A DNA stretch of 64,000 nucleotides from an uncultured Candidatus Saccharibacteria bacterium (GCA_964490125.1 CAZBAJ010000004.1:7662-71661); one strand, 5' to 3'. Shown: positions 1-42,446, numbered from the stretch's first letter. Numbers and translations are program-made. The notes: a model not told the origin generated them from the letters alone.

Positions 1-105
1 CCGGGCGCACCATCTTTTTTGTTAGCGTTCAAAAACGGTAAAATTTTGTAATTAGAAATTCTCCCCATCGCGTCAACTTCCGTAGGTTTAACATAATATT
101 ACATA

Positions 106-134
106 TTGCATGGTTTGGTTCGTTGTGCTAACTT
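106..134 (+). promoter_or_regulatory. Putative sigma70-like promoter (TTGCAT-17 bp-TAACTT) ending 6 nt before the ATG at 141
   Basis: Read by eye: -35 TTGCAT at 106-111, 17-bp spacer, -10 TAACTT at 129-134; the leader is very short. Confidence 0.3.
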
Positions 135-140
135 GCTTTT

Positions 141-548
141 ATGAGCAGGAAAGTCGTCCATAACCACCCAGAAAATTTTGAAACCATTGTTTTGGAGAAA
201 TTAATTGAGTTTTCTAGCGACATCAAGAGGATAGATGCAAAGTTAGAAGGGCTAGATGAAAAGGTAGGTGGATTAGATGCAAAAGTAGGAGGTTTGGATG
301 AAAAGGTGGGGGGTCTGGGTTCGGAAATGAGAGCGGTTAAGGTACAAGTAGGTGGCTTGACGGAGCGTTTGGATGAAATAGATGCTAGAGGTAAAAAAAC
401 TTACGACATTATGGTGGAGCTTGTCGGCGATTCTAAAGTTGACCGAGAGGAACGCCTGTTTTTAACCCACAGGGTTAGAGATAACGAGGAAAGGCTGGAG
501 GTGGTTGAGTCCGCTCTGGCAATTAAGCCTGCAGCGAGAGCATTTTAA
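141..548 (+). CDS. Hypothetical small coiled-coil protein, paralog 1 of a tandem triplet (135 aa)
   Basis: ORF track. N-terminal VVHNHPENFE..VLEKL and C-terminal DREERLFLTHRVRDNEERLEVVESALAIKPAARAF motifs are shared with the two following ORFs. The internal repeat GLDEKVGGLDAKVGGLDEKVGGL is heptad-like. Confidence 0.6.
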   Translation: MSRKVVHNHPENFETIVLEKLIEFSSDIKRIDAKLEGLDEKVGGLDAKVGGLDEKVGGLGSEMRAVKVQVGGLTERLDEIDARGKKTYDIMVELVGDSKVDREERLFLTHRVRDNEERLEVVESALAIKPAARAF

Positions 549-550
549 GT

Positions 551-937
551 ATGTCAATAAAATACAAAGACAAAAATTTGACTGATTCACAAGCTCTTAA
601 GCTGTTGTTGGAGAGAGTAGATACCCACGATAAATGTTTTGAAGTTATTGAAAAACGATTTGAGGGCGTTAGTAAAAGACTTACAGGGATTGATGATAAT
701 TTAACCTCGCTAAACGCTAAAGCATATAAATCTGGTTTAGATTTGGACTATATCAAGGAGCAGGTGCAATCCGTCCCTAAAATTTACAACTTGATGGACA
801 AAATAAGTGGTGGATTTAGGGTTGATCGTGATGAGAGGGTTATTTTAAAAGACCGGGTTGATAATCACGAGGAGCGGTTAGTGACCGTTGAAGTAGCCCT
901 ATCTATTAGTCCGCCACAGAGGGGATTATTATTATGA
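551..937 (+). CDS. Hypothetical small coiled-coil protein, paralog 2 (128 aa)
   Basis: ORF track. The C-terminal DRDERVILKDRVDNHEERLVTVEVALSISPP matches the family motif. The ATG lies 2 nt after the stop of paralog 1. Confidence 0.55.
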   Translation: MSIKYKDKNLTDSQALKLLLERVDTHDKCFEVIEKRFEGVSKRLTGIDDNLTSLNAKAYKSGLDLDYIKEQVQSVPKIYNLMDKISGGFRVDRDERVILKDRVDNHEERLVTVEVALSISPPQRGLLL

Positions 938-1308
938 CAAATAAAGTCGTCCATAACCATCTGGAAAATTTTGAAATATTTGTTTTAGAGAAATTGGTAG
1001 AGTATGAGAAGAATTTTAGAGATATACGAAGCACACTTGCTGATCACGACAGGAATTTTAAGGATATACGGAATATACTTGCGGACCACTCCGTGAAGCT
1101 AGTTAAATTGGAGGAAAAATTAGATGTGCTTGACGATAGGACGGCATTTTTACCAAAGTTGTACGACGCAGTAGATGCGTTTATGAAGGAAATTAAAGAA
1201 AGTCGAGAGGACAGGGTTTTATTGGGTACGCGCGTTGGTGAATGTGAAGACAGGTTGGCGGTTGTGGAGGAGATTTGTGCGATTAAGCCTGCTGGGAGGG
1301 CGTTTTAG
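934..1308 (+). CDS. Hypothetical small coiled-coil protein, paralog 3 (124 aa)
   Basis: ORF track. N-terminal VVHNHLENFEIFVLEKL and C-terminal REDRVLLGTRVGECEDRLAVVEEICAIKPAGRAF match paralog 1. Its start overlaps the stop of paralog 2 (ATGA). Confidence 0.6.
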   Translation: MTNKVVHNHLENFEIFVLEKLVEYEKNFRDIRSTLADHDRNFKDIRNILADHSVKLVKLEEKLDVLDDRTAFLPKLYDAVDAFMKEIKESREDRVLLGTRVGECEDRLAVVEEICAIKPAGRAF

Positions 1309-2331
1309 TTATGACGAGTCATGACGGGCGACTTGCCAGATTTTTTCCACCACATCCTCCACGGTTTTAGCTTCCGAAAACGGGATGTTGCAACCCGCCG
1401 CTACCCTATGTCCGCCGCCACCAAACGATTTTGCTATCCTAAGAACATCGTATTCCATGTTGTGTGAGCGTAAGCTAATCCGCCAGTGCTCGGGAAATGA
1501 CAAATCGGTTTCCAGGACAAATACAAAGTCCACATCTTTAAGGTTTTTTATCGTGTCCGCTGATATTGTGCCGTGCTCCTTTATTCCTTTGGCTTCGACA
1601 TCCTCTTTAAGCAATATGGAATAAGCAAATTTCTTATTGTACTCAACCTTAATATTGGAATACAGAATGCCTTTTACCTTCAGCTCGTCTAGACTCTCAT
1701 TAGAAGTTAGAAAGCGAATAAAATCGATATATCGTCCTCCCTTTTCTACAATGTTGGCGATTATTCTTAATTCTTTAGGTGTTACATTGTCAAGCTGGAG
1801 CAAGCCGGTATCCGTTAATAACGAAGCCAGTAAAAAATCCGCCATTGTGGGATCAATTTCGATACCCCAAATATTAAACAGGTCGTACAACAAACTTCCG
1901 GTTGACGCCCTCTGCTCAACAAAATTTAGTGTTCCGTATAAATTGTTACCAAGGTGATGGTCTATATTTAAAGTTGGTTTGTCTGGTGATTTGTAATCCC
2001 CTGCCTTGGTGTGATGTTCCAAAGTCCCGCTGTCCAAAAATACAACCAAGTCGTACGGAGTGTAATCAAAAGTTTTAAGATCGACATTTTCCTGAATTCG
2101 GCTGGTGTCAAAATATTCTTTTGGCTTTGCTGGAATGTTGTAGCCGTAAATACATGAATGCGGGATTTTTAACTGTTTCAAGGCGTCACTAAAGGATAAA
2201 ACCGATCCCAAAGCGTCGTAGTCAAACCGTGAATCCATAATGATCAAGATATTTTTGGACGACTTTAGTGCTTGTAAAATCGTTTGCGGGGAGTCGTTTT
2301 GTTTTTGTTGCGTTTGTAGGCTGTCGATCAT
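1309..2331 (-). CDS. nrnA: DHH-family phosphoesterase, NrnA-like oligoribonuclease/pAp phosphatase
   Basis: The DHH motif NIDHHLGNN and the C-terminal DHHA1-type GGGGH motif are present; length is 340 aa. Confidence 0.7.
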   Translation of the reverse strand: MIDSLQTQQKQNDSPQTILQALKSSKNILIIMDSRFDYDALGSVLSFSDALKQLKIPHSCIYGYNIPAKPKEYFDTSRIQENVDLKTFDYTPYDLVVFLDSGTLEHHTKAGDYKSPDKPTLNIDHHLGNNLYGTLNFVEQRASTGSLLYDLFNIWGIEIDPTMADFLLASLLTDTGLLQLDNVTPKELRIIANIVEKGGRYIDFIRFLTSNESLDELKVKGILYSNIKVEYNKKFAYSILLKEDVEAKGIKEHGTISADTIKNLKDVDFVFVLETDLSFPEHWRISLRSHNMEYDVLRIAKSFGGGGHRVAAGCNIPFSEAKTVEDVVEKIWQVARHDSS

Positions 2332-2340
2332 TTTGATAAA

Positions 2341-5055
2341 TTACTTACCGTTTTCGCTCTCGGACTGACCGTCTTCTTTGTCGTCGTCATTTAAAAAGGC
2401 TATGGAGGATACGGCATCTTTGTCGTCCAGCTTAATAATACGCACGCCTTGAGTTGCGCGACCAAGTGTAGGAATTTTATTAGCGTCAACCCTTATAATA
2501 ATGCCGTTTTGGGTAGAAACCAACATATCATAATTAGGATTTTTCTCTATAAGGCGGACGACGGAAACCTTGCCAACTTTTTCTGTAACCTTGTAGGTAA
2601 GCACTCCGCTACCCGAACGATTTTGTACTTTGTATTCGTCCACAGAAGTTTTTTTGCCATAACCTTTTTCTGTAAGCACCAAAAGGTCGTAATTTTTTAG
2701 ACTTTTGTTTAGGACTTCCATGCCAATGACTTCATCGTTTTGTTTTGCCAGTTTGACGCCGGTGACGCCGGACGCTTGCCTGCCCATTGCTCTAACATCG
2801 GCTTCTTTAAAGCGAATAGATTGACCCTGCGAGGTTACCAGCAGGATTTCATCCGAGCCGGTGGAAAAGTTAACGCGAAGCAGGCTGTCGTCACTACCTA
2901 GATTTAGCGCCATGATACCGTTGGTTCTAATGTTAGAAAATTCCGTTACTGCAGTTTTTTTAACAATTCCTTTAGTGGTGGCAAAAACAATATAGCCGGT
3001 GCCTGCGTTTAAAGTTTCTTCGTCCACGGTTAAAAAGGCTTCTACTGTTTCATCTTGCGCCACCGACAAAAAGTTAGCCAGTGAAGTTCCCCTGGCGGTC
3101 CGTTGGACTTCTGGAATTTCCCAAACGCGCATTTTGTAAACCTTGCCCTTGCTGGTGAACAATAATGCGTAGTCGTGAGTATTACAGGTGCGGATTGTAG
3201 TTACGACATCATCTTCTTTTAACGATTGACCGGAAACTCCGCGCCCTCCCCTACCCTGCTTGCGGTAAGTATCTTTTTTCATGCGTTTAATGTAGCCACT
3301 TTGGGAAATAGTGACGATGCAAAGTTCTTCTGGCACAAGGTCTTCCTCGTTTAATTCTCCTACGTCACCTTTTACGATTTTGGTTTTTCTGGGATCTTGG
3401 TACTTTTCTGCAAGTCCCGCGAGTTCTTCTCTAACCTTGGCTAAAATCTTTTCCGGTGAGTATAAAAGTTGCTCGTAATTTTTAATTGTTTTAATAATTT
3501 CCTCAAGTTCGTCTTCTATCTTTTTGCGCTCGAGCGCCGCAAGTTTGCGGAGCTGCATGTCCAAGATTGCCTGGGCCTGAAGTTCCGAAAGTCCAAATTT
3601 TTCCATTAAGCCTGTCTTGGCTGTTTCCGCGTCTTTGCTGGCTCTAATAAGTTTAATGACTTCGTCCAAATGATCAAGGGCAATTTTTAACCCGAGTAAA
3701 ATATGTTCCCGTTCCTTAGCCTTTTTGAGTAAATAAAGTGTTCTACGCACCACAATTTTTTGTCTATGAATAATAAATTCCTCCAAAATCTGTTTTAAGG
3801 TCATAAGCTTGGGTTCGTTATCTAACAGAGCTACCATATTGGCATTAAAAGTGGACTGTAAAGCGGTGTATTTAAAAAGCTGGTTTAGGACTTTTTGGGG
3901 AATCGCGTCGCGCTTAAGTTCTATTACAATTCGCATGCCTTCGCGGTTAGATTCGTCGCGCAGGTCGTAAATGCCTACTATTTTTTTGTCGCGCACCAAG
4001 TCCGCAATTTTTTCTACCAGCGTAGCTTTGTTGATTTGATAAGGAATTTCTGTGACGATAATTTTTGTTTTGCCTGCTTTATCCTCCTCAATTTCTGTTT
4101 TTGCCCTAGTGACTACCCTACCCCGTCCTGTTGCGTACATTTGGACCATTTCTTTGTGACCGTAAATAATGCCACCGGTGGGAAAATCGGGACCTTTAAT
4201 AATTTTGACTAGGTCTTCTGTCGTGGCGCTACTAGAAAAAGCCGTGTCAGCAACTTTAGTTTCTTTATTTTCCTTGCCGATTTCGTCCGGATTGTCAACC
4301 ATGTACAAAAGTCCCGCAATTACCTCACCTATATTGTGAGGTGGAATATTTGTTGCCATACCAACCGCAATGCCAGAGGAGCCATTTAATAAAATGTTTG
4401 GTAAGAGCGACGGCAGAATGACAGGTTCGTAATTTTGAAGGTCGTTAAGGGCAAAGTCAACGGTATTTTTGTCTATATCGGTATAAAGTTGCTCCGAAAT
4501 TGCAGAAAGTTTACACTCCGTATACCTCTGCGCGGCGGGCGGATCGCCGTCAATGGAACCAAAATTTCCTTGGGGAGAAATTAGCGGGTAACGCAAAGAA
4601 AAATCCTGACCCATGCGGACTAAAGAGTCGTACACCGCAATATCTCCGTGCGGATGATACTTTTTAAGCACTTCCCCCACAACGGCGGCGCATTTATAAA
4701 ACTTGCTAGAGTGGGTAATGCCCGTGTCGTACATGGCATAAATAATGCGCCTATGCACTGGTTTTAGACCGTCGCGGACATCAGGCAGGGCGCGGGAAAC
4801 AATAACGCTCATGGCGTAGTCCAGGTACGACTTTTGCATTTCTTGCGTAATTTCTGCCTTGACTATGCCTCTGGGAAGTTCCGGTTCGGTTTGTACGACA
4901 TCGGTTTCTGTCTGATTTACGCTTGGCTGTCCTGCTGATCCGCTGACGCCCTCATCCCCGGCTTCGGCCAGTTGTTCTGCTGTTTCAACGCGTTTAGCTT
5001 TTTCTCCACTTTTCTCTTCAGTCGAACCAACTTTTTTAGTGTCTTTTGTCGCCAT
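2341..5055 (-). CDS. gyrA: DNA gyrase subunit A
   Basis: Contains [28 protein letters not shown] and the [16 protein letters not shown] / catalytic Tyr region. The C-terminal beta-pinwheel repeats are present. A ~65-aa acidic N-terminal extension precedes the conserved start. Confidence 0.9.
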
Positions 5056-5076: not shown

Positions 5077-7104
5077 TTACATGCTTGCGACAAGTACAGG
5101 AGCTATCAAAAGCGCCACAATTTGGACGATCTTCATCATGGGATTAAGCGCAGGACCTGCGGTGTCTTTTAACGGGTCGCCCACGGTGTCGCCAACCACG
5201 GCAGCTTTGTGAGTCTCGCTACCCTTACCTCCAAAGTTACCGTCCTCTACATATTTTTTAGCGTTATCCCAAGCTCCACCTGTGTTGCACATAAAAAATG
5301 CCATCAAAAGTCCGACAACAACAGAACCTGCCAAGAACCCACCCAATGCCTCTACGCCTAAAAATCCAACAACTACGGGTGATAACACTACAATGGCCGC
5401 CGGAATAACCAATTCTTTTTGGGCGGCCAAGGTCACGATTTCTACTGCTTTAGAGTAATCCGGCAAGGCTTTTCCTTCCATAATGCCAGGAATTTCCTTA
5501 AATTGTCGTCTGACTTCTTCTACTACCGCAAAGGCTGCCCGTCCAACTGAACCAATAAGTCGCGAGCTAAATAAAAACGGCAGCGACCCGCCTAAAAGCA
5601 CGCCAACAAAAACTATCGGTTGGGCAATATCTATGGCAGATAAACCTGTGACTTCAAAATAGGTGGCGAATAGAGAGCTGGCTGCAACAGCTGCCGAACC
5701 TACTGCAAAACCCTTGGTTAAAGCTTTGGTAGTGTTACCAACCGCATCTAAACTGCCCGTAACTTTGGCGGCTTTGTCGGAAAGTCCGCACATTTCCACA
5801 AGACCTTGGGCGTTATCGGAAATAGGTCCAAAAGTATCTAACGCCATAATAATTCCCGTGGTAGCAAGCATGCCCATGCCCGCCAGTGAAATACCGTAAA
5901 AGCCTAATAAGGCGTAGCCGGCGTAAATGGTAGCGCAGACGACCAAAACGGAATAAAAAGTTGATTCCATGCCGTAACCAAGACCGGAAATAATATTTGT
6001 ACCTGCCCCGGTTTGGGACGATTTAGAAATACCTACAACAGGTTTTTCTCCAGGTCCGGTGTAGTACTTGGTAATAAATAAAAGCGCAATCATGGCGACA
6101 ATACCGCTAACGGCGGCAAGTCCGGCTTTAGGTTCGCCAAGCAAGTAAATTCCAAGTAACATGAAAATGACTACGGCAGAAACTGCCGACACGCCAAAAC
6201 CTCTAATTAAGGGATTAAGCGGATTTTCGTCTTCACTTTTGGCCTTAACAAAGAATGTACCTAAAATAGAAGTAAGTACCGCGCCGGATCTTGCCAAGAG
6301 CGGGAAAACCACGCCTTTAAGACCAAACATCTGTCCCCCTAAAATCATGGCTGCAACAATAGTAAGCGCGTACGACTCAAAAACATCAGCAGCCATACCG
6401 GCGCAGTCGCCTACATTGTCGCCCACATTATCCGCAATGGTAGCGGGATTTCTCTTGTCGTCCTCCGGGATACCTGCCTCTACTTTACCAACTAAATCCG
6501 CGCCAACATCCGCAGCTTTGGTAAAAATTCCCCCGCCGACTCTCATAAACAGGGCTAAAAGAGCGGCCCCAAATCCGTAACCTACCAAAACGGTGGTGGC
6601 ATAGTGGGCAACTGCCTCCGGTCCCTGTGAGATATAAGTAAAGTAAGAGTACATGTAAATTACCGACACGCCCAAAAGTCCTAGTCCAACAACTAACATG
6701 CCGTTTACCGTACCTGCGCCAAAAGCGGTTTTTAGTGCTGGATTTAGACCCTTTAGCGCGTTTTCCGCTGTTCTAACATTTGCCTTTACTGCAATCCACA
6801 TACCAAAGTAACCTATAACGCCACTAAAAATGGCTCCCATTAAAAAGGTTACGGCGGTGCCCAAGCTTAAAGCAAGAGCAATAACCGTAGCAAGAATAAC
6901 CATTATGGGAATAACAATAGAGAACTGTTTTCTTAAATATGCCATTGCACCATCACTTATGGCTTTGCCCACGCTGGCAAGTTCCGCGTTTTCTACTTTT
7001 TGGGCGGTAATTTTTTTAGAAAGAAAGAATCCGTAGGCTAGGGCTATTAAAGCCGTAATTGGAGCCCCGTACAACGCTATTAATTGAATGTCTATTGTTC
7101 CCAT
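5077..7104 (-). CDS. hppA: Membrane-bound H+-translocating pyrophosphatase, K+-independent type
   Basis: Contains GDNVGDCAGMAADVFESY and GDTVGDPLKDTAGPALN motifs and many TM segments. The GNTTKA motif (Lys) is the K+-independent signature. Confidence 0.85.
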   Translation of the reverse strand: MGTIDIQLIALYGAPITALIALAYGFFLSKKITAQKVENAELASVGKAISDGAMAYLRKQFSIVIPIMVILATVIALALSLGTAVTFLMGAIFSGVIGYFGMWIAVKANVRTAENALKGLNPALKTAFGAGTVNGMLVVGLGLLGVSVIYMYSYFTYISQGPEAVAHYATTVLVGYGFGAALLALFMRVGGGIFTKAADVGADLVGKVEAGIPEDDKRNPATIADNVGDNVGDCAGMAADVFESYALTIVAAMILGGQMFGLKGVVFPLLARSGAVLTSILGTFFVKAKSEDENPLNPLIRGFGVSAVSAVVIFMLLGIYLLGEPKAGLAAVSGIVAMIALLFITKYYTGPGEKPVVGISKSSQTGAGTNIISGLGYGMESTFYSVLVVCATIYAGYALLGFYGISLAGMGMLATTGIIMALDTFGPISDNAQGLVEMCGLSDKAAKVTGSLDAVGNTTKALTKGFAVGSAAVAASSLFATYFEVTGLSAIDIAQPIVFVGVLLGGSLPFLFSSRLIGSVGRAAFAVVEEVRRQFKEIPGIMEGKALPDYSKAVEIVTLAAQKELVIPAAIVVLSPVVVGFLGVEALGGFLAGSVVVGLLMAFFMCNTGGAWDNAKKYVEDGNFGGKGSETHKAAVVGDTVGDPLKDTAGPALNPMMKIVQIVALLIAPVLVASM

Positions 7105-10452: not shown

Positions 10453-11250
10453 ATGCTTGGTTCGGTTTTAATTTTAGGGGGCGACAAAAAAGAGCGACTT
10501 AAAAAGGCGTGGGAATTGTTGGCGGAACATGGGTTCAAAGGCGACAATAAAGACACGGTCGATCCGGATTTGCTGATTATTCAACGGGAAGAAGGTAAAA
10601 AATCCGTAGGAATTACCCAAGCGCGGGAGGTTAAGGACTTTTTACGGGAGCGACCTTTGCGCAGGAAGGCCAAAGCCATCTTGGTGGAAGATGCCCAGGC
10701 TTTTACAGACGATGCCCAAGGGAGTCTCCTTAAAATTTTGGAAGAACCGCCTGTTTTTGGCTTAATTATTCTGCTTGCCGACAAAGAAGGCGCGCTTTTG
10801 CCTACAGTGGTTTCCAGGTGTCAAAGGATTGTTGTTTCACAGGGAAGGTTCGATTTGGAAAATCGGAAAAGTACCAGAAAGGGTACCAAGGGAACGGCTG
10901 AAGAAGACGGTCAAGGCGATGTTAAAAGCGACAGCGAGATTGACGACGCAGATAAAAGCGATCAAAAGGATCTGAATAAAGGACGAACGGCATCTATCAG
11001 CCCGACAAAGTCGCGCTTTAATCTGTCGTCCTACAGTTACGAAGAACTTTTTGACTTAGCTAAAGACTTATCCGCAAAAGGCAAGGAGGAGGCACTTAAC
11101 TTTTTGGAGCAGGTTTTGCGGGAGGATATTAAAAATAACGCGCCCCTACCCGTCGTCCAGAAAATGGAGAAAGCGTTAAAAGACCTAAAAGAGGCTAATG
11201 TTGCACTAAAGTATGCCTTGGAACACCTTTTTTTACTGCATTGCAAATGA
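10453..11250 (+). CDS. holB: DNA polymerase III delta-prime (HolB)-like clamp-loader subunit, degenerate
   Basis: Contains LLKILEEPP and TVVSRCQ sensor motifs. The N-terminal P-loop is degenerate (LILGGDKKERL). An acidic low-complexity insertion is present (KSDSEIDDADKSDQKD). Confidence 0.55.
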   Translation: MLGSVLILGGDKKERLKKAWELLAEHGFKGDNKDTVDPDLLIIQREEGKKSVGITQAREVKDFLRERPLRRKAKAILVEDAQAFTDDAQGSLLKILEEPPVFGLIILLADKEGALLPTVVSRCQRIVVSQGRFDLENRKSTRKGTKGTAEEDGQGDVKSDSEIDDADKSDQKDLNKGRTASISPTKSRFNLSSYSYEELFDLAKDLSAKGKEEALNFLEQVLREDIKNNAPLPVVQKMEKALKDLKEANVALKYALEHLFLLHCK

Positions 11251-11276
11251 ATTGCATTTGCAATCTAAGTGCAATA
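11238..11276. promoter_or_regulatory. Cluster of TGCAAT/ATTGCA inverted and direct repeats between holB and pilB
   Basis: In ctgcATTGCAaatgaATTGCAttTGCAATctaagTGCAATacgca the unit ATTGCA-tt-TGCAAT is a perfect palindrome, and the half-site is repeated 4 times. Confidence 0.35.
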
Positions 11277-11354
11277 CGCAAAAATTTGGTATTTGGGGAA
11301 TATGCTGGCTTTGATTGAAATCCAATTAAATGTGTTACTATTTAACTACTGCCT

Positions 11355-13133
11355 ATGTTTATAGATTCAATAAATCCAAAAACAACCTTTGAGGACTTTT
11401 TGCTGGAAAAAGGTTTAATTGACGAGGCAAAGTACACACAATTAAAGACCGACCTTACTAAATCTCCAGGTAATACTGCCGAAGTTGTGTATAAAAGCGG
11501 TTTTTTGACGGACGAGGCTTACGCCAAAGCATACTCCGACTTCTACTCCGTCCCATATATTTCTTTATTGGAAAAAAAGTTTGACGAGGAATTAATTAGT
11601 AAAATTCCGGTGCAATTAGCAAAAACATATGCGCTGGCGCCTTTTTTGTACGACGGTGAGCAAAATATTTTGCATCTAGCCATGCGGGATCCGTTGGACT
11701 TGCAGTTTATTACCTTTTTAGAAAAAAAGCTGGGTTACAAGATTATTGCCTATATTTCCCCGCCCAGCGAGTTGGCTAAGGTGGTAGATGAAACCTTTGG
11801 TAAGTCTATTAAAGAAGAGGTCACTCAAGCTTTAGAGGAAATTAATCAAACCACGCTAAAGATTGAAGAGTCAGGTCAGTCTTTAGAAAGCATAGGTTCA
11901 CTTAAAGACGCTCCTGTTGCCAGAATAGTTAATATCCTGTTGGAGTCGGCGGTAAAGGGTGGGGCTTCTGATATTCATTTGGAACCGGGTGAGGATAATA
12001 TGCGCATTAGATATAGGGTGGACGGTATTTTAAGTGAGCGACACATCTTGCCAAAAGCGGTGCAGGATAGTTTAGTTGCCCGCATTAAAATTTTGTCCAA
12101 CTTAAAAATTGACGAGAAAAGAATTCCCCAGGATGGTAGGTTTAAAGTCCAGGTGGGCGACACTTTTACGGACTTGCGGGTTTCTACTTTGCCCACAGTG
12201 AACGGTGAGAAAGTAGTGATTAGGTTATTAAAGGACGAAGCAAATATTTACACTTTTAAGGATTTAGGTTTGGGCGGGCTTTCCCTTAAGCGGTTTGAGG
12301 AAGGTCTGTTAAAGTCAAACGGAATTATTATTATTACCGGACCAACCGGTTCCGGAAAAACAGTAACCTTAGCAACGGCGCTTTCTAAACTTAACAGCGT
12401 AAAAGTAAATGTGGTGACTTTGGAAGACCCCGTGGAAATTAAAATTAAAGGCGTCAATCAAGTGCAGATTAACCCCCAAGCAGGGTTAACATTTTCTTCC
12501 GGTTTACGGTCCTTTTTGCGCCAGGATCCCAACATTATTATGGTAGGAGAAATTAGGGACGGTGAAACTGCGGAGTTGGCTATTCATGCCGCCCTTACAG
12601 GTCACTTAGTTTTGTCGACATTACACACAAACTCCTCTGCTGGGGCAATTCCCAGGCTTATTGACATGGGAGTAGAAAACTTTTTGTTGGCGTCAACCTT
12701 AAATGTAGTGTTAGCGCAAAGGCTGGTCCGCAGAGTGTGTAATGACTGTAAACTTGCATACGATCCGCCGGAAGACTTGTTAAAAGAAGTTAAAGTTGTT
12801 TTAGAAAGCATTGGCAATACCCAGCTTTTAGAGTCGCGCGACAAACAGATGTTGGAATCTATTAAAAAGGTTGGTGCGGGTTCCATAAAACTTTATAGAT
12901 CTGTAGGTTGTAACAAATGTAATGATACCGGTTACAAAGGTCGGTCCGGTATTTACGAAGTCCTCCAAGTGTCAGAAAAAATAAGAACTTTAATAATTGA
13001 CAAGGGTACAGAGTCCGATATAAACAAAGTAGCCACAAGCGAAGGTATGATAACTTTGTTGCAGGACGGTTATTTAAAGGCTTTGGAGGGAGTTACCACT
13101 CTGGAGGAAGTATTAAGGGTTGCAAAGGAGTAA
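11355..13133 (+). CDS. pilB: Type IV pilus assembly ATPase PilB (GspE family)
   Basis: Has a GspE_N domain, Walker A GPTGSGKT and a CxxC...CxxC zinc motif (CNDC...CNKC). Length is 592 aa. Confidence 0.85.
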   Translation: MFIDSINPKTTFEDFLLEKGLIDEAKYTQLKTDLTKSPGNTAEVVYKSGFLTDEAYAKAYSDFYSVPYISLLEKKFDEELISKIPVQLAKTYALAPFLYDGEQNILHLAMRDPLDLQFITFLEKKLGYKIIAYISPPSELAKVVDETFGKSIKEEVTQALEEINQTTLKIEESGQSLESIGSLKDAPVARIVNILLESAVKGGASDIHLEPGEDNMRIRYRVDGILSERHILPKAVQDSLVARIKILSNLKIDEKRIPQDGRFKVQVGDTFTDLRVSTLPTVNGEKVVIRLLKDEANIYTFKDLGLGGLSLKRFEEGLLKSNGIIIITGPTGSGKTVTLATALSKLNSVKVNVVTLEDPVEIKIKGVNQVQINPQAGLTFSSGLRSFLRQDPNIIMVGEIRDGETAELAIHAALTGHLVLSTLHTNSSAGAIPRLIDMGVENFLLASTLNVVLAQRLVRRVCNDCKLAYDPPEDLLKEVKVVLESIGNTQLLESRDKQMLESIKKVGAGSIKLYRSVGCNKCNDTGYKGRSGIYEVLQVSEKIRTLIIDKGTESDINKVATSEGMITLLQDGYLKALEGVTTLEEVLRVAKE

Positions 13134-29594: not shown

Positions 29595-30830
29595 TTAGAC
29601 AACCTTGTAAACGGGCAAAAGCTTTTTTGGAAAGCCGTGAATTTCCCAAAACGCCCTTAAATCCTCTTCCGTAAGGTTGGCAAGTCCTTTAGCCTTAACA
29701 ACTTTGGCAATTTTGCGCGCACCCTTCTCCAAAGTCACTTTATATTCCTTCTCGTGGTCAAAAATTACCTCCAAACAAGTCGTCACCCCGTCACTTAAAT
29801 GTGGATACGGTTTTGCATACATTTGGACGACTTGGTGACGCAGTTTTGGCAAAAGTTCCTGCGGATTAAGTCCCTGCGCGTACATGGAAGAAAGTAGCCT
29901 GCGGATAAGCGTTCTAATAATCCTGCCACGGTCGGCTTTGCTGGGGACTATTTTTTCTTCCGCCAAAATAAATAAGAGCGACTTAATGTGGTCGGCAATA
30001 ATTTTTATATTCTCGTTAAGCTCACCTGTTGGCGCAATCAAATCGACTAAAGGTTTTAGGTATGATGTCAAATAAATGCTTTCCACCCCTTCCACAATCT
30101 TGGCGCACCGTTCCGCGCCAATAACTACCTCGGTGGATTTGTTTACTAAGTCGCCCAAAACCGGCTCTTTAGAATAGTCAATAAAATGCTCGATAAACAA
30201 AATGTTACTAATTTCCAAAAACCGTCCGCATTTGCAAAACGGGTTGCAATTTGGGTTTTGACAGTTTTGATTGACGCCCTGATCGTAAAAGAATTCCACC
30301 TGCGGACCGCACAGCTTGATGTTGTCCCTAAGATCCGCACCCCCGCCCTGTTCCCACAAATTGGTTTCTTTGTTGCCAAAAACCACCTGACCGTTTGCTG
30401 TTTTGGTGACAAAGTCTTTAAGTTCGGTTTCTAGATCAATTTCCCTACCCGCAACAACATCTTTGTTAAACACCGTTGCCCAAATATGTTTTGGATTGAT
30501 TTTTAGGACTTTGGTTAGAAATTCCCAAGTTAGGTTTACGGTATTGACCTTGTTATATTCAACCACTTCAAACGCTCCCGCCATTTCAAAAAAGCTTAAG
30601 TGACTCTCGTCGCCCACTTTTTCAATGTCAAAATGCCTAACGCACGGTTGAATTAAAACCTCTTTGGACGGATTTGCTGGATTTTTTGACCGTATTCTGG
30701 GGTCGAGTTGGACGAGACCTGCGGACATATTGAAGGATGTTGGAAAGACGGGGTGTACAAGCGACTCGTGGTCGATTCTTTTAAAACCCGCCTTTATGAA
30801 AGTGTCAATCCATGCAATATTAATATCCAT
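29595..30830 (-). CDS. Alanyl-tRNA synthetase catalytic/tRNA-recognition domain-only homolog (411 aa)
   Basis: Aligns to the AlaRS N-terminal ~440 aa: FNMSAGL, QPCVRHFDIEKVGDESHLSFFEMAGAF, LCGPQVEFFYDQG, IKIIADHIKSLLFILAEEKIVPSKADRGRIIRTLIRR. There is no editing or C-Ala domain. Confidence 0.65.
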   Translation of the reverse strand: MDINIAWIDTFIKAGFKRIDHESLVHPVFPTSFNMSAGLVQLDPRIRSKNPANPSKEVLIQPCVRHFDIEKVGDESHLSFFEMAGAFEVVEYNKVNTVNLTWEFLTKVLKINPKHIWATVFNKDVVAGREIDLETELKDFVTKTANGQVVFGNKETNLWEQGGGADLRDNIKLCGPQVEFFYDQGVNQNCQNPNCNPFCKCGRFLEISNILFIEHFIDYSKEPVLGDLVNKSTEVVIGAERCAKIVEGVESIYLTSYLKPLVDLIAPTGELNENIKIIADHIKSLLFILAEEKIVPSKADRGRIIRTLIRRLLSSMYAQGLNPQELLPKLRHQVVQMYAKPYPHLSDGVTTCLEVIFDHEKEYKVTLEKGARKIAKVVKAKGLANLTEEDLRAFWEIHGFPKKLLPVYKVV

Positions 30831-32290: not shown

Positions 32291-33244
32291 TTAAATCAGG
32301 CTCCCAACCAGTCTAACCATTTTTTCTTTGTCTTTTGGATTACTTTCCGAAATTAATATGGTTAAGGCAGTAAGTGCTGACGGTGTTAATTTGGCGGTGT
32401 TAAGAATTTTTGCTTGTTTTAAAAACCACACAAAAGCAAATGCGGCGCTTCTTTTATTGCCGTCCATAAACGGATGATCTTTAACCATAAAATACAAAAG
32501 GTTGGCGGATTTTTCTTCTACTGTAGGGTATAAGTCTTGACCCCCAAAGGACTGCATGACATTACCCACTATGCCAGAAAGTCTGCCTTGACTCTGTTCC
32601 GTCCCAAAAAGTTTGGTAGCCGTGCCTTTAGATAGTAAATCTGATTTTAAAGTTGCTAATTCTTGCTCGAGTTTTTGCGCGGTAATTTCCACAGACTTTT
32701 TAGTAGTTTTTTTAGTCTTTAACTGATCTTTGTCGTACGCCTCAAGAGAGACCCATGTGTCGGCGTAGGCGCTAATTAGTTCCATAACATCCTTGGTGTT
32801 TATAAGTTCGTTTCCAGGCAGGAGCAGTTTTATGTCTTCAACTGTTTTTAGGAATTGTTGATAGTTTTTTGCAATTAGCTTTTTGTTTATTGCATAACCC
32901 TGGGTAATATATTCTTTTAGGGTTTGGGTAGCCCACCGTCTAAAATCAATGGCTACCCTGGAATTTGTACGATATCCAACAGCCAGAATAAGGTCTAGTG
33001 AGTAGGCAAAAACGGGTTTAAAGGGGCTAGTAAAGTGCATTTTTTGCACATTACTCCTCCTTTTTACCTCCCGATCCTTAAAGATTTTGTTGATGTGTCT
33101 AGTCACAACCGTCCTCTCGATTCCAAAAAGTTCGGCTATTTGAGTTTGACTAGCCCAGATAGTTCCGCGTCTAGCGTCTCTTCTTAACTCTATTGCTCCG
33201 GATCTCGATTGATAAATAACTAGCTGATTATTTTTATTTGTCAT
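32291..33244 (-). CDS. RhuM-family N-terminal domain fused to a Fic/Doc domain protein
   Basis: The N-terminus is RhuM-like (virulence protein RhuM family). The C-terminal HPFMDGNKRSAAF motif matches the Doc-type Fic motif HxFx(D/N)GNKR. Confidence 0.6.
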   Translation of the reverse strand: MTNKNNQLVIYQSRSGAIELRRDARRGTIWASQTQIAELFGIERTVVTRHINKIFKDREVKRRSNVQKMHFTSPFKPVFAYSLDLILAVGYRTNSRVAIDFRRWATQTLKEYITQGYAINKKLIAKNYQQFLKTVEDIKLLLPGNELINTKDVMELISAYADTWVSLEAYDKDQLKTKKTTKKSVEITAQKLEQELATLKSDLLSKGTATKLFGTEQSQGRLSGIVGNVMQSFGGQDLYPTVEEKSANLLYFMVKDHPFMDGNKRSAAFAFVWFLKQAKILNTAKLTPSALTALTILISESNPKDKEKMVRLVGSLI

Positions 33245-33375: not shown

Positions 33376-35421
33376 TTAATTTTGACCCACATACTTACCC
33401 GATTCTTCTATTTTATCCTTCAACATCGGAAACTCATCAAGTCGCCCAAAATATTTTTGCGCTTGCGCTTTAGCCTTCTCCAAAAGTTCCACATCAAAAA
33501 TGCTGGCGACTTTAAAGTTTTTTACCCCGCTTTGCATTGTACCAAAAATGTCGCCCTGACCTCGCATTTTTAAATCCAGCTCGGCAAGTTCCAATCCGTC
33601 GTCGCAAGTTTCCATATATTTTAGCCGTTCACGCGATTTTTGTGAGCTTCCCGTATTTACCAAAAAACAATAACCTTGCTGACCAAGTCGACCTACTCGC
33701 CCCCTAAGTTGATGTAGCGACGCCAAACCGTACCTTTCTGCGCTTTCTATTACAATAATTGATGCTTCCGGTACATCTATACCCACCTCTATAACTGGCG
33801 TGGATACAAGGTAACGGATTTTTCCGGTTCTAAACTCTTCAATAGCGATTTCTTTTTCCTTAGCTTTAATTTTGCCGTGAATCAGGCGCATTTGGTCTGC
33901 GGGTAGTATTTTTTGCAGGTCTTTAAATTCTTTTTCCGCCGCTTTTACATTTTCAAAATCCTCGTTGGTCGACTGGTTAATAAACGGACACACAATAAAA
34001 GTTTGTTGATTTTGCGCCTTAATCCATTGGTACAATTTTTCTCGGCTATTTTCCTGTGCGACTTTTGTCTGGACTTTTCTGCCCTCTTTGGTGTGTGGTT
34101 TTAGGACAGAAATATCTAAATCCCCGTAAATTGTTAGCGACAGGGTTCTGGGGATTGGCGTTGCCGTCATAGAGAGCATGTTAGGTAAAATAGTTTCTTT
34201 TGACATATTAAGAAGCATGGTGCGCTGTTCTACCCCAAACCGATGTTGTTCGTCCACAATAACAAGTCCTAGCTTTTCTACTTGTGTGGTTGAGTACAAA
34301 AGCGCATGGGTTCCAATGGCAATGTCAAAATTTTGAGTAAGTTCTGTGTTCTTGGTATTTGTCTTTTGGATAAGCTTAATACCCGAAATAAAATTTTGAG
34401 TAAGAAAGTTGGTAAATGTTTCAAAATGCTGATTGGCTAAAATTTCCGTAGGTGCCATTAAAACTGTTTTGTAACGGTTTAAATACGCCAAGTATCCAGC
34501 TATAAGGCTAACTATGGTTTTTCCGCTTCCCACATCGCCTTCTAAAAGCCGATTCATTGGTGCTTCTTCCTGCAAGTCACTTACGATGCTATCCAGTGCT
34601 TGTTGTTGGGAGGTTGTAAGTTTAAACGGCAGACTGGCTATTAAGTCGTCAACCTGGTTCTTATATGGCGCGTATAGGATTTTGCACCCGTTTTTTTCTT
34701 TTTTCCACTCTTGTTTTCTCTTTTCGACTTTTAAAAGCTCCAGAAAGACCTCTTCAAAAGCAAAGCGATTTTTGGCAATTTCCGCGTCATCCAGACTTTG
34801 GGGAAAGTGGATTTTACTAAAAGCTTCGGCAATCTCCGGAAAGTTATTTTCAGTAAGTACTTCTGGGGGTAAAAACTCTAAAATTTTCGCTCCGGAATCG
34901 TCGCCCTGGAAACCCTTTACGATGTCGTTATTTCTAGACCGTAACCATTTAGAGGAAATTCCTGCCGTTTCGGGATAAATTGCCACAAGTCGTCCTGTTG
35001 CTAAGCCCCCCTCCCCTTCTTCAAATTCGGGCGAGAAAATACACTTTTTGTTTTTGTACAAAGTAACGCGCCCGCTAACCGTGTAGGTTTTATTTTCTCG
35101 GAGAACGGTTTTTAAGTAATGTTGGTTGAACCAAATTAAATTTAGGCTACCGGTTTCGTCCACAATTGTTGCAATGGTTAATCGCTTGCCGGTAGGTGTG
35201 GCAATATTTGTAACTTTTCCCAAAAAGCCCGTAATGGAAACAACATCGTTAACCACCGCATCGCCCACTTTAACCTTTTTAGAATAGTCCTCGTATCTAA
35301 AGGGAAAGTGGTAGAGCAGATCTCCAACCGTTTTAATTTCTAGCTTTTCCAACAGTTTTTCGTATTTAGGTCCGACTTTATTGAGAAATTTTACGGGTCT
35401 TTTAAAAAAATCACGGGTCAT
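33376..35421 (-). CDS. recG: ATP-dependent DNA helicase RecG
   Basis: Has the wedge domain, helicase motifs (GDVGSGKT, DEQHRFG, QLRGRVGR) and TRG; 681 aa. Confidence 0.8.
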   Translation of the reverse strand: MTRDFFKRPVKFLNKVGPKYEKLLEKLEIKTVGDLLYHFPFRYEDYSKKVKVGDAVVNDVVSITGFLGKVTNIATPTGKRLTIATIVDETGSLNLIWFNQHYLKTVLRENKTYTVSGRVTLYKNKKCIFSPEFEEGEGGLATGRLVAIYPETAGISSKWLRSRNNDIVKGFQGDDSGAKILEFLPPEVLTENNFPEIAEAFSKIHFPQSLDDAEIAKNRFAFEEVFLELLKVEKRKQEWKKEKNGCKILYAPYKNQVDDLIASLPFKLTTSQQQALDSIVSDLQEEAPMNRLLEGDVGSGKTIVSLIAGYLAYLNRYKTVLMAPTEILANQHFETFTNFLTQNFISGIKLIQKTNTKNTELTQNFDIAIGTHALLYSTTQVEKLGLVIVDEQHRFGVEQRTMLLNMSKETILPNMLSMTATPIPRTLSLTIYGDLDISVLKPHTKEGRKVQTKVAQENSREKLYQWIKAQNQQTFIVCPFINQSTNEDFENVKAAEKEFKDLQKILPADQMRLIHGKIKAKEKEIAIEEFRTGKIRYLVSTPVIEVGIDVPEASIIVIESAERYGLASLHQLRGRVGRLGQQGYCFLVNTGSSQKSRERLKYMETCDDGLELAELDLKMRGQGDIFGTMQSGVKNFKVASIFDVELLEKAKAQAQKYFGRLDEFPMLKDKIEESGKYVGQN

Positions 35422-36143: not shown

Positions 36144-36252
36144 TTCTGAAAAAAATTATCCTTTAAGGCTTTAGTAACGGGACTATACTCTACTCGTTGG
36201 TTCTAGTCGCTATGTGATTGCATTTGCTTATTGGTTGTGTTAGGATAGTAAT

Positions 36253-39710: not shown

Positions 39711-42446
39711 ATGATTAGGTCTAACCCTAGAACCAGAAGGAAAATATCCGCTTTTGTTTCTAAAGTCAGAGCAAAATTTAGTAGGACGACGGGTAGAGGG
39801 GCGACTTTGGGCGATTCTGCAGGTAGAAATGTAGTATTAGTGCGACGCAGGTACGCCAGCAAAAAATTGATGTTACTTACTTATTTTGCCACGGCGCTGT
39901 TGGTAAGTATTATAGGGTTTTTTGTTTTAACAATGGTGGTTTTTGCGGTTTACTCGTATCAACTCCCTTCGCCTGACAAACTTCTTAACCGTAGTCAGGA
40001 GCTGTCAACCAAGATTTTGGACAGAAACGGAAAGCCAATTTACGAGGTATATGGTGAAAAAAACCGCGAATTAATACAAATAAACGATATTGGCGTGAAT
40101 CTTCAGTATGCAACTTTAGCAACAGAAGACTCCGATTTTTATACCCATAGCGGATTTTCTCCCAGAGGTATGATTAGAGCTTTAAGAAACACTTTTTTTG
40201 GCGGGGATTTGCAGGGCGGTTCCACGCTTACTCAACAGGTGGTAAAAAATACGCTTTTGTCGCAGGAACGCACGGTAACAAGAAAGATTAAGGAATTTGT
40301 GTTGGCGTTGCAATTGGAAAGCAAATACTCTAAAAACGAGATTTTGCAAATGTATTTAAACGAAACACCTTACGGAGGTCAAAATTACGGAGTTTTGACA
40401 GCGTCTAAGGCATATTTTAATAAAGAGCCTAAGGATTTAACCTTGGCGGAATCGGCGTATTTGGCGGGTTTGCCTCAAAGTCCGTCCACCTACTCCTATT
40501 ATAGTAGTGACCCTGCAAAGGGCTTGGCGCGCAAAGACTATGTTTTGTACTTAATGAAGGTTCGTGGTTGGATGGGAGTTGACGGGAAAAGACATTTTAT
40601 TAGTGACGAAGATTACGAGGGCGCCAAAAAAGAGGAACTTAAATTTGAGCGCGCTCACGCCTCTTTTTTGGCGCCCCACTTCGTCTTTTATGTTAAAGAA
40701 CTTTTAGCCCAAAAATACGGCGAAGACCGTGTTGAGGGTGGCGGATTAATAGTTACAACCAGCTTGGATTTAACTGTCCAAGAAATGGCAGAAAAAATCG
40801 TTAAAGAAGAAGTCGCCAAAGCTAAAAACCTAAATGTGGGTAATGGCGCAATGGTGGTGATTGATCCTAAAACCGGTCAAATTTTGGCAATGGTAGGTTC
40901 TAAAGACTACTTTGGCGACACCGAACCTGAAAACTGCGTTTCCGGTGCCACGGGGGAAGGTTCGTGCGTGTTTGATCCCAACTTAAATGTCACACTTGCT
41001 TTGCGCCAACCCGGGTCGTCCATAAAACCTATAACTTACGCTACCATGCTTTCCCAAGGCTACACCGCATCCTTCCCGTTTATGGATGTTCCAACCACTT
41101 TTGAAAATATGGCGGGTCAAATGGTCTACAAACCGGAAAATTACGACGGCACTTTCCGCGGACCCATGTCGCTCCGCAAATCTCTGGGTAACTCTTTAAA
41201 CATTCCAGCGGTAAAAGCGCTAAAGATTGCGGGAATTTCTAACATGGTCGACCAGGCAAAAAAAATGGGCATTACTACTTTTAGTCGACCGGAAGGCTAC
41301 GGGTTGGCGCTAACCTTGGGTGGCGGTGAGACTAAACTTTTGGAAATGACCGGTGCGTTTAGCGTTTTTGCTGCCAAGGGCATGTTTAGACCACCGGAGG
41401 CTTTGTTGGAGGTTAAAGACGCTGGTGGCGCCTTGCTGTATAAGTGGGTTGACACAGGTGGGACTCGGGCGTTAAGCGAAGAAGTGGCTTTTTTAATTTC
41501 TGATATTTTGGCGGACGACGGCGCGCGAAGCGAGGCTTTTGGTTTTGGCAGTTTGTTAAATATTCCCGGACATCAGGTGGCGGTAAAAACAGGAACTACC
41601 GACGACAAGCGTGATAACTATGCCATGGGTTTTACACCCTACATTGTTATGGGTGCTTGGGTGGGCAATAATAATAACGACAAAATGAATCCGTATTTGG
41701 CGTCCGGTATAACAGGAGCCACACCAATCTACAACCGGTTTATGAAGGAATATATTAAGCTGTATTATGGCGACGACTCTAAAAAGCCCATTGAAAAGTT
41801 TGAACCGCCCAAGAACATCAAAAAAATGGAGGTGGACAAACTGACTGGTATGTTGCCCACAGGAGAATATGACCGACGGCAAGAGTGGTTTGTTACCGGT
41901 ACAGAGCCTACGGCGGTGAGCGACTGGTATCAAAAGCTGGAAGTCTGCAAGGTGGATGGAAAGATTGCTAATCAGGCTTGTAAGGATGCAGGTAAATCAA
42001 AGCAAAAAACCTATATTAAAATAAAAGCCGAGCTTCCGGAATGGCAGGACTTTGTGGACAATTGGGTGGCGGAGCGGTTTAAGGACGATGATACTTATTT
42101 CCCGCCCACTTCTACCTCCCGACTTTCCTTTGACAGCGACGGCAAATCTTCTGGCGACAAGATTTCTGCCGACATTGTAGGTTTTACGGACGGTCAAACG
42201 GTGCCACTAGAGTTTAGGTTAAAGGTTGACGCTTGGAGTGAAGACGAAATCGACCAAGTAAGTATTTATTTAGACGACGAGAAGGTTACTGACGACGGCT
42301 CCTTTCCTTACGGTTACAACTTTGTCTTTAAACCGTCCGACGCCGGGGAAAAAGAATTTAGAATAAAAGCCCGTGATAAAAACGGTCGCACCGCTGAAGA
42401 TAAAATAAAGCTTATCATCTATGGTGGTGATAATACCGCAAATTAA
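39711..42446 (+). CDS. Class A penicillin-binding protein (bifunctional transglycosylase/transpeptidase, PBP1A-type)
   Basis: Has the GT51 motifs (EDSDFYTHSGFSPRG, QGGSTLTQQ) and the transpeptidase SxxK (GSSIKP) and KTGT motifs. A C-terminal ~150-aa extension is present. Confidence 0.8.
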   Translation: MIRSNPRTRRKISAFVSKVRAKFSRTTGRGATLGDSAGRNVVLVRRRYASKKLMLLTYFATALLVSIIGFFVLTMVVFAVYSYQLPSPDKLLNRSQELSTKILDRNGKPIYEVYGEKNRELIQINDIGVNLQYATLATEDSDFYTHSGFSPRGMIRALRNTFFGGDLQGGSTLTQQVVKNTLLSQERTVTRKIKEFVLALQLESKYSKNEILQMYLNETPYGGQNYGVLTASKAYFNKEPKDLTLAESAYLAGLPQSPSTYSYYSSDPAKGLARKDYVLYLMKVRGWMGVDGKRHFISDEDYEGAKKEELKFERAHASFLAPHFVFYVKELLAQKYGEDRVEGGGLIVTTSLDLTVQEMAEKIVKEEVAKAKNLNVGNGAMVVIDPKTGQILAMVGSKDYFGDTEPENCVSGATGEGSCVFDPNLNVTLALRQPGSSIKPITYATMLSQGYTASFPFMDVPTTFENMAGQMVYKPENYDGTFRGPMSLRKSLGNSLNIPAVKALKIAGISNMVDQAKKMGITTFSRPEGYGLALTLGGGETKLLEMTGAFSVFAAKGMFRPPEALLEVKDAGGALLYKWVDTGGTRALSEEVAFLISDILADDGARSEAFGFGSLLNIPGHQVAVKTGTTDDKRDNYAMGFTPYIVMGAWVGNNNNDKMNPYLASGITGATPIYNRFMKEYIKLYYGDDSKKPIEKFEPPKNIKKMEVDKLTGMLPTGEYDRRQEWFVTGTEPTAVSDWYQKLEVCKVDGKIANQACKDAGKSKQKTYIKIKAELPEWQDFVDNWVAERFKDDDTYFPPTSTSRLSFDSDGKSSGDKISADIVGFTDGQTVPLEFRLKVDAWSEDEIDQVSIYLDDEKVTDDGSFPYGYNFVFKPSDAGEKEFRIKARDKNGRTAEDKIKLIIYGGDNTAN

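Follow-up and report, generated by a model that had tools for sequence, protein, structure and literature searches.

Three old paralogs in one Saccharibacteria operon: members of a Patescibacteria family of coiled-coil rods with a likely scaffold or spacer role

What are three short, adjacent and related genes of no named family doing between a tRNA gene and gyrA in the genome of an uncultured Candidatus Saccharibacteria bacterium? The question arises from a stretch of 64,000 nucleotides (nt) of that genome (GCA_964490125.1, CAZBAJ010000004.1:7662-71661; hereafter the window, with positions counted from its first letter), at the start of which a first-pass annotation, made from the sequence alone, had picked out a tandem triplet of small coiled-coil proteins. 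That annotation described constant ends around unrelated middles, and proposed that the array was under diversifying selection and might encode surface, phage-tail-fibre-like or immunity-type modules. Our analysis suggests a different answer. At a probability that we put at roughly 0.6, the locus is an operon of three old paralogs from a coiled-coil rod family of the Patescibacteria, whose function, which we infer, is likely that of a cytoplasmic scaffold or spacer.

The three open reading frames (ORFs) lie on the + strand at 141-548 (copy 1, P0003, 135 amino acids (aa)), 551-937 (copy 2, P0002, 128 aa) and 934-1308 (copy 3, P0001, 124 aa), with the positions and lengths originally given, and BLASTP comparisons identify them as true paralogs, with E-values of 2e-22 between copies 1 and 3, 6e-16 between copies 1 and 2, and 2e-10 between copies 2 and 3. 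A hidden Markov model (HMM) of the family, whose alignment itself includes the three, matches every copy at E<=1e-32, and a tblastn search found no further copy in the window. The translational coupling described for the genes is borne out: copy 2 starts at 551, 2 nt past the stop codon of copy 1 (546-548), and the ATG of copy 3 (934-936) overlaps the TGA of copy 2 (935-937) as ATGA. Copies 1 and 3 do share the N-terminal motif VVHNH(P/L)ENFE..VLEKL and the AIKPAxRAF end reported for them; copy 2 lacks the VVHN..ENFE motif and ends in GLLL in place of RAF. The C-terminal motif attributed to all three holds in the form R.ER...RV...E.RL..VE...I.P, but its stricter elements DRxER and EERL do not, as copy 3 reads SREDR and EDRL there. 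A reading of the three genes as spurious ORFs was considered and ruled out by their conservation and by the ratio of nonsynonymous to synonymous substitution rates (dN/dS).

Each protein is predicted to be a soluble helical rod of ~105-113 helical residues, roughly 16-17 nm long. AlphaFold2 (AF2) models copy 1 as a single helix over residues 13-125 (predicted local distance difference test score, pLDDT, 94.4) and, from an alignment of 53 family sequences, copy 3 as helices 10-70 and 73-114 (pLDDT 92.7), with a break at the conserved LPK. Hydrophobicity recurs every 3.5 residues in all three copies (z = 9.0, 4.6 and 4.4 against shuffles, the first value being that of copy 1), and strongly hydrophobic residues occupy ~63-70% of the a and d positions and 18-25% of the others. 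The combination of a long uninterrupted helix and a significant 3.5-residue periodicity places the proteins in the coiled-coil rod class, so that the coiled-coil nature first ascribed to them is upheld by models and sequence periodicity alike. None of the 53 members has a signal peptide or a transmembrane (TM)-like segment; on the Kyte-Doolittle scale, the highest 19-residue window of the three copies reaches 0.44-1.08, and 0 of 53 members exceed 1.6. The isoelectric points of the three copies, 5.3-6.7, are mildly acidic to neutral.

The family protein has two parts, an N-terminal heptad region of variable length and a conserved C-terminal module of ~55 residues with the pattern ..(P)K.Y.. R.ER .. 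R[VL]..[HNC]E.R[LI]..[VL]E, and the clade to which the window belongs also has the N-terminal VVHN.PENFE motif and an ..IKP..RAF tail. Within the conserved module, three of the positions predicted to lie in the coiled-coil core appear to be polar (N/S, a near-invariant R, and H), and by the heptad assignment the last of them is occupied by N, H and C in copies 1, 2 and 3, respectively.

The middle of the proteins, which had been called unrelated in sequence between the copies, is in fact an alignable heptad coiled coil with 25-28% identity and with K86 and Y88 invariant across the family. It is a spacer coiled coil, whose length shifts by whole repeat units and whose sequence drifts under relaxed yet purifying constraint. 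In homologs with both anchors, the distance from ENFE to K.Y is 43, 57, 57, 64, 64, 64, 85, 85 and 85 residues (a set that includes the near-identical pair L015a and P0006), and all these values are separated by multiples of 7. Copy 1 stands apart, since its anchor distance of 75 equals 64+11, one hendecad more than that of its ortholog P0010. Length steps of whole heptads imply a continuous coiled coil in which both ends are kept in phase, and the faster sequence drift and the whole-unit length change of the middle can both be explained if only heptad pattern and phase are constrained there. Whole units may be gained and lost through replication slippage on the 21- and 42-nt repeats present in the DNA. 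Copy 1 carries a 21-nt unit in 3.9 tandem copies at 228-307 (+ strand; Tandem Repeats Finder and repeat search, family D1), which encodes (V)GGLD(E/A)K heptads, and so the heptad repeat noticed in the protein exists in the DNA as well. Copy 3 carries a 42-nt direct repeat in two copies at 1006-1089 (+ strand; repeat search, family D4), reading NFRDIRSTLADHDR / NFKDIRNILADHSV and encoding a double heptad.

Could the locus then be a diversifying tandem array after all, with constant ends and a hypervariable core such as might be expected of surface antigens, tail-fibre tips or immunity proteins? The pattern that invited this idea is real. The ends are conserved and the middle is more variable, with a higher rate of change than the ends whichever paralogs or orthologs are compared (between copy 3 and P0005, for example, the middle is 53% identical and the ends are 70-72% identical, with one 7-residue indel); tandem DNA repeats lie in the middle, and copy number differs among relatives. 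The rates, however, point the other way. Between copy 3 and P0004, whose middles are 81% identical, dN/dS is 0.20 in the middle against 0.14 in the C-terminal part, values that come from one ortholog pair of 104 codons, other pairs being saturated at synonymous sites. Both values indicate purifying selection, which contradicts the diversifying selection first proposed. The core shows no strain-level variation, and for every copy there is an ortholog in which the middle is still recognisably conserved. As for surface, tail-fibre or immunity modules, the proteins have no signal peptide or TM segment, no PADLOC match, no viral relative and no phage or defence genes nearby. We accordingly disfavour the diversifying array and consider it very improbable.

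Comparison of strains gives a similar picture at a finer scale. A second strain, L010, has zero differences over window positions 1-3636, yet shows ~1.4-2.5% divergence in gyrA, gyrB and the H+-PPase gene. In the strain variants P0158 and P0157, the changes are confined to the "conserved" ends (V5I, H9Y and I22M in copy 1, and T112I in copy 2). We also considered gene conversion as a source of the likeness that copies 1 and 3 show at their ends, and rejected it. The proportion of synonymous differences (pS) is 0.52 over their shared N-terminal 25 codons, slightly under the 0.67-0.91 found elsewhere, and constraint at the protein level explains the likeness better, because the motif is also conserved in orthologs from other genomes. 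The same 5' ends form a 72-nt direct repeat on the + strand (139-210 with 932-1003, 81% identical; repeat search, family D2). This repeat could be a substrate for unequal recombination that alters copy number, as suggested by the existence of relatives with one, two and three copies.

Turning to the age of the triplet, separate orthologs of the three copies exist in other genomes, which indicates old paralog lineages and not a recent local triplication. The closest relatives of copy 1 (c1 lineage) are its orthologs P0010 and P0025, and those of copy 3 (c3 lineage) are P0004 (85%) and P0005 (61%). Copy 2 (c2 lineage) is closest to P0022, its second ortholog being the second ORF of L007, which is more divergent and is read as c2-type because of where it sits in the array. 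Close relatives, with GyrA 85-94% identical, keep the order tRNA-Arg(GCG), family gene(s), convergent DHH gene, gyrA and H+-PPase gene; the tRNA-Arg(GCG) upstream of the family gene is also found at L025 267-342, L007 574-649 and L004 1184-1259. A search of related genomes for further copies, suggested along with the first-pass annotation, returned 1, 2 or 3 genes at the equivalent locus. All three are present in the window and in four other samples of the same strain, L007 has a c1-type and c2-type pair with a 4-nt overlap, and a single c3-type gene occupies the locus in L003, L004-L006, L008, L015 and L025. L001 has two separate c3-type genes, each with its own promoter. The single c3-type gene of L025 contains, at 454-513, two in-frame TAA codons within the N-terminal motif (MTKKVVHN-stop-PKNF-stop-IFVLG..), and P0004 as called restarts at a TTG after the two TAA codons; the N-terminus may be in decay, the sequence may contain an error, or the truncation may be functional.

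This distribution also bears on whether the three chains are obliged to assemble with one another. An obligate heteromer (a heterotrimer, for instance) might have a polar, possibly ion- or metal-binding core formed by R-[VL]-x-x-[N/H/C]-E, with the operon supplying equal numbers of the three chains. Such an assembly would be consistent with the tight translational coupling of the three genes, with the retention of an overlapping c1-/c2-type pair in L007, and with the predicted core d position that differs between the copies as N, H or C. The R-h-x-x-h-E of the family is reminiscent of a published motif for the trimerisation of short coiled coils. Most close relatives, however, have a single gene, and homo-oligomers must therefore function there. 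In addition, c2- and c3-type genes at other loci are preceded by promoters of their own, and the stretch between the anchors has 11 more residues in copy 1 than in copy 3, which would leave the ends of parallel chains out of register. An obligate heteromer thus strikes us as possible but unlikely.

The promoter region carries a second family-specific signature. A family upstream element at 82-110 on the + strand (GTA..T..CATAnTnTTrCATrTTGCA), with two CATA boxes 10 nt apart, overlaps the -35 of a sigma-70-type promoter at 106-134 on the same strand, which consists of the -35 TTGCAT at 106-111, a 17-nt spacer and the extended -10 TGcTAACTT at 126-134. In an upstream alignment of 8 family genes (both L001 genes included), invariant columns are seen, along with TGnTAnnnT and a spacing of exactly 6 nt to the start codon. 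In the 64-kb window the 19-nt core of the element has a single occurrence (92-110), against 0.1 expected by chance at <=2 mismatches; across 17 loci, each transcription unit of the family has one such core, and its distance to the start codon is 49 nt in every case. The distant members L016, L018, L020, L021 and L022 have a related CATA...CATATTGCAA element. No such element lies upstream of copies 2 and 3 in the window, though c2- and c3-type genes elsewhere have one, and this fits a single operon.

We read the locus as one such operon of three paralogs, probably transcribed as a leaderless mRNA. The -10 ends 6 nt before the ATG, which would put the first transcribed base on the A of the ATG or beside it, and A141, 7 nt after the -10, sits at the canonical +1 position. 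The promoter with a 6-nt leader that had been described is therefore half right: the promoter is present and conserved, but the 6 nt are the gap between the end of the -10 and the ATG, a leaderless geometry. A generic promoter scanner did not call the family promoter, because its -10 fits only 3/6 consensus positions. The geometry itself is shared with other genes, as an equal arrangement lies at 36218-36246, before ORF 36253, and many window genes lack a Shine-Dalgarno sequence and have TAnnnT placed 5-7 nt ahead of the ATG. Leaderless transcription thus looks generic here, and only CATA-N6-CATA is specific to the family. Examples of the extended -10-like TGnTAnnnT are associated with 36218-36252, 29595..30830(-), 32291..33244(-), 33376..35421(-) and 39711..42446(+).

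An element of this kind raises the possibility that the helical protein has a protective or storage role (LEA/CAHS-like or phasin-like) and is induced under certain conditions by a dedicated transcription factor, which would bind CATA-N6-CATA where it overlaps the -35. Direct repeats one helical turn apart beside a -35 are typical of response-regulator sites. The nucleotide sequence of the element is conserved at rigid spacing across paralogs of only ~50% protein identity, a related form is present in distant members, and it was not found at other promoters in the window. On the other hand, the locus has no linked regulator gene, and the motif was not found upstream of other genes, which leaves no regulon to interpret; a motif scan of metagenomes returned two already-known family loci and unrelated chance matches, with no new gene classes and no regulon. 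The element could also be a strong UP-like promoter part that was inherited with the gene. Taken together, we find an induced protective or storage role improbable. The sole other near match in the window, with 2 mismatches (11270-11288, - strand), lies between ORFs 10453..11250 and 11355..13133 and is probably due to chance. On an unrelated metagenome contig, L027, a near-perfect palindrome that fits the motif pattern, CATATTATTACATATTGCAATATGTAATATTAT, is found at 6017-6055 directly upstream of a 178-aa ORF, and looks like the operator of some other system.

How far does the family extend? Among 5.8e9 clusters, a profile of the three copies recovered only 12 that are close homologs, a number that counts the window proteins, and the only source names for these are Patescibacteria; a thirteenth match, P0013, aligns via the GLDEKVGG repeat only. 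HMMER with the 12-sequence profile gave 847 matches at E<=1e-3, many of the long ones matching via repeats only. Of 161 proteins fetched, ~95 carry the C-terminal core, approximately ..IDERTxxxPKLYDxVDKxxGEIxExRQERxFxxxRLxxHExRxxxLE, at E<1e-3 when scaled to the whole library; these are 57-288 aa long with a median of 117. Longer members have additional heptad or hendecad repeats before the core, and no additional domain. A core-only search of the 5.8-billion-protein set, confined by its word index to 154 candidates, added almost nothing. In species-representative genomes, all confirmed loci (9/9) belong to Patescibacteria, including the complete WWE3 genome CP006914, and one family cluster carries the NCBI name WWE3. 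There were no relatives in IMG/VR viral contigs, and we found no published paper on the family. The family is thus unnamed and found here only in Patescibacteria, and in kind it is a small coiled-coil family of unknown function. Some family members from other metagenomes (P0049, P0015 and P0035) have long runs of L-x-x-H-[ST]-x-x heptads, such as HTNILLAHSTILNNHTAILVKHT..., in which histidine recurs at a predicted core position over many heptads, an unusual pattern reminiscent of a "histidine zipper".

Comparisons with named families lead to the same conclusion, and the first-pass annotation was right in recognising none. Library scans of the three copies and 53 family members against Pfam, NCBIfam and PHROGs returned only sub-threshold generic coiled-coil matches, PADLOC-DB yielded no family for the three copies at E<=0.01, and Rfam had no match in window positions 1-1500. 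A sequence search of the PDB with full-length and core-only profiles retrieved only tropomyosin, MCP and generic or designed coiled coils. Candidatus Giovannonibacteria, another lineage of the candidate phyla radiation (CPR), supplied a weak match at E 4e-4, the solved structure of a hypothetical coiled-coil protein (PDB 7o97), which aligned with the repeat region of the family only and is unrelated via the core.

The commonest weak matches were to DUF7310 (PF23991; 22/53 members) and DUF1664 (PF07889; 10/53), both of them generic small coiled coils of unknown function. With DUF7310, for which the cutoff is 40 bits, the three copies score 20.5, 16.6 and 17.0 bits and the best member 30.5; with DUF1664, for which it is 34.6 bits, the best score is 25.6, that of copy 1, and involves the GLDEKVG repeat region only. 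The matches inspected for these two families lie mainly in the repeat region, with the match of copy 2 to DUF7310 lying in the core. Mycoplasma DUF16 (PF01519) gave weak matches in 12/53 members, far under its 40-bit cutoff. DUF16 comprises multi-copy families of small coiled-coil proteins of reduced genomes, with a conserved C-terminal coiled coil and a variable N-terminal part. The likeness is one of analogy, in that our family is also multi-copy with a conserved C-terminal module and a variable N-terminal part; however, DUF16 belongs to another phylum and there is no common diagnostic motif. ZapB, DivIVA/GpsB and Braun's lipoprotein Lpp offer an analogy of function, as short, mostly single-helix proteins. 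They act as oligomeric rods, and in Lpp the heptad length sets a distance. Matches to ZapB and LPP were below cutoff and seen in one long family member only, with no sequence relationship; the family also has no lipobox or signal peptide, and its C-terminal module and promoter element are unique to it.

Another candidate was XhlA (PF10779), a confident match to which was named at the outset as something that would reduce the novelty of the family. All the scores seen fall under the Pfam cutoff of 34.7 bits, with 12.9 bits for copy 2 and no match for copies 1 and 3. Weak similarity occurs in 12/53 members (best E 9e-8), with 20.2 and 27.0 bits in those inspected individually, and its position differs, being in the repeat region in P0036 and P0043 and in a 16-residue stretch of the core in copy 2. 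Small size, an N-terminal coiled coil and the sub-threshold profile similarity of some members make up the likeness. XhlA, a hemolysin or lysis accessory of PBSX-type phages, differs in having a C-terminal TM helix and in residing in phage lysis cassettes, and the family has neither. A phage lysis or hemolysin accessory of this kind, left on a prophage remnant beside a tRNA gene, could be argued for from the weak PF10779 similarity, from weak PHROG "hemolysin" matches and from the tRNA immediately upstream. Against this, the scores are sub-cutoff, no TM helix is present in the 53 members and there are no IMG/VR relatives; no integrase, holin, endolysin or other phage gene was seen at the locus in any relative, and the housekeeping genes around the locus keep their synteny with it from genome to genome. 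This origin is disfavoured, and we regard it as scarcely credible.

We therefore return to a cytoplasmic scaffold or spacer. As a mechanism, the C-terminal module would either drive oligomerisation or bind a partner, and the conserved ends would be presented to partners at a set distance. Relatives with one copy would form homo-oligomers; in the window genome, coupled expression at 1:1:1 would permit mixed assemblies. Several points weigh against this interpretation. The oligomeric state, the cellular location and the partners are all inferred, the AF2 models being monomeric and silent on assembly, and expression of the operon is a prediction from sequence. The dN/dS values come from the single pair described above, and the strain block with zero differences could be a recent recombination tract instead of a sign of constraint. 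The evidence for a restriction to Patescibacteria consists of a genome scan with a single narrow peptide pattern, together with the names of a few sources. Finally, outside the close clade, we saw no conserved neighbour that would suggest a pathway. A more elaborate version can be imagined, in which these are Patescibacteria-specific cytoskeletal or "ruler" rods of heptad-tuned length, with a polar core that serves as a docking or metal site, a regulator acting at a CATA operator, and a defined hetero-oligomer of the three paralogs. We consider this full combination improbable.

The CPR/Patescibacteria have tiny genomes, a large share of whose genes have no known function. A family under purifying selection, with its own conserved promoter element, is a candidate for a lineage-specific scaffold, spacer or stress protein in this group. 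What sets the family apart is its restriction to the CPR, the heptad-quantised spacing of its ends and the family-specific promoter element; the spacing in particular offers a clean natural case of length evolution constrained by register. The tempting interpretation as a hypervariable cassette is removed as unsupported, and no long-standing question is opened by the family alone.

The surroundings of the operon are those of the syntenic block. Its upstream boundary is the 3' end of tRNA-Arg(GCG) at 1-12 (+ strand), known from an ARAGORN call at L012 626-701, where L012 690 corresponds to window position 1. Downstream, a convergent DHH/DHHA1 phosphoesterase gene (1309-2331, - strand) abuts copy 3 and lies outside the operon, with gyrA (2341-5055) and then the H+-PPase gene (5077-7104) beyond it; all three serve as syntenic anchors. 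No intrinsic terminator was detectable at the junction of copy 3 and the DHH gene (1305-1330). The stop codons of these two genes, on opposite strands, are directly adjacent (1306-1308 and 1309-1311) with zero intergenic space, and the junction holds a short 10-nt repeat in two copies with the palindrome GTCATGAC.

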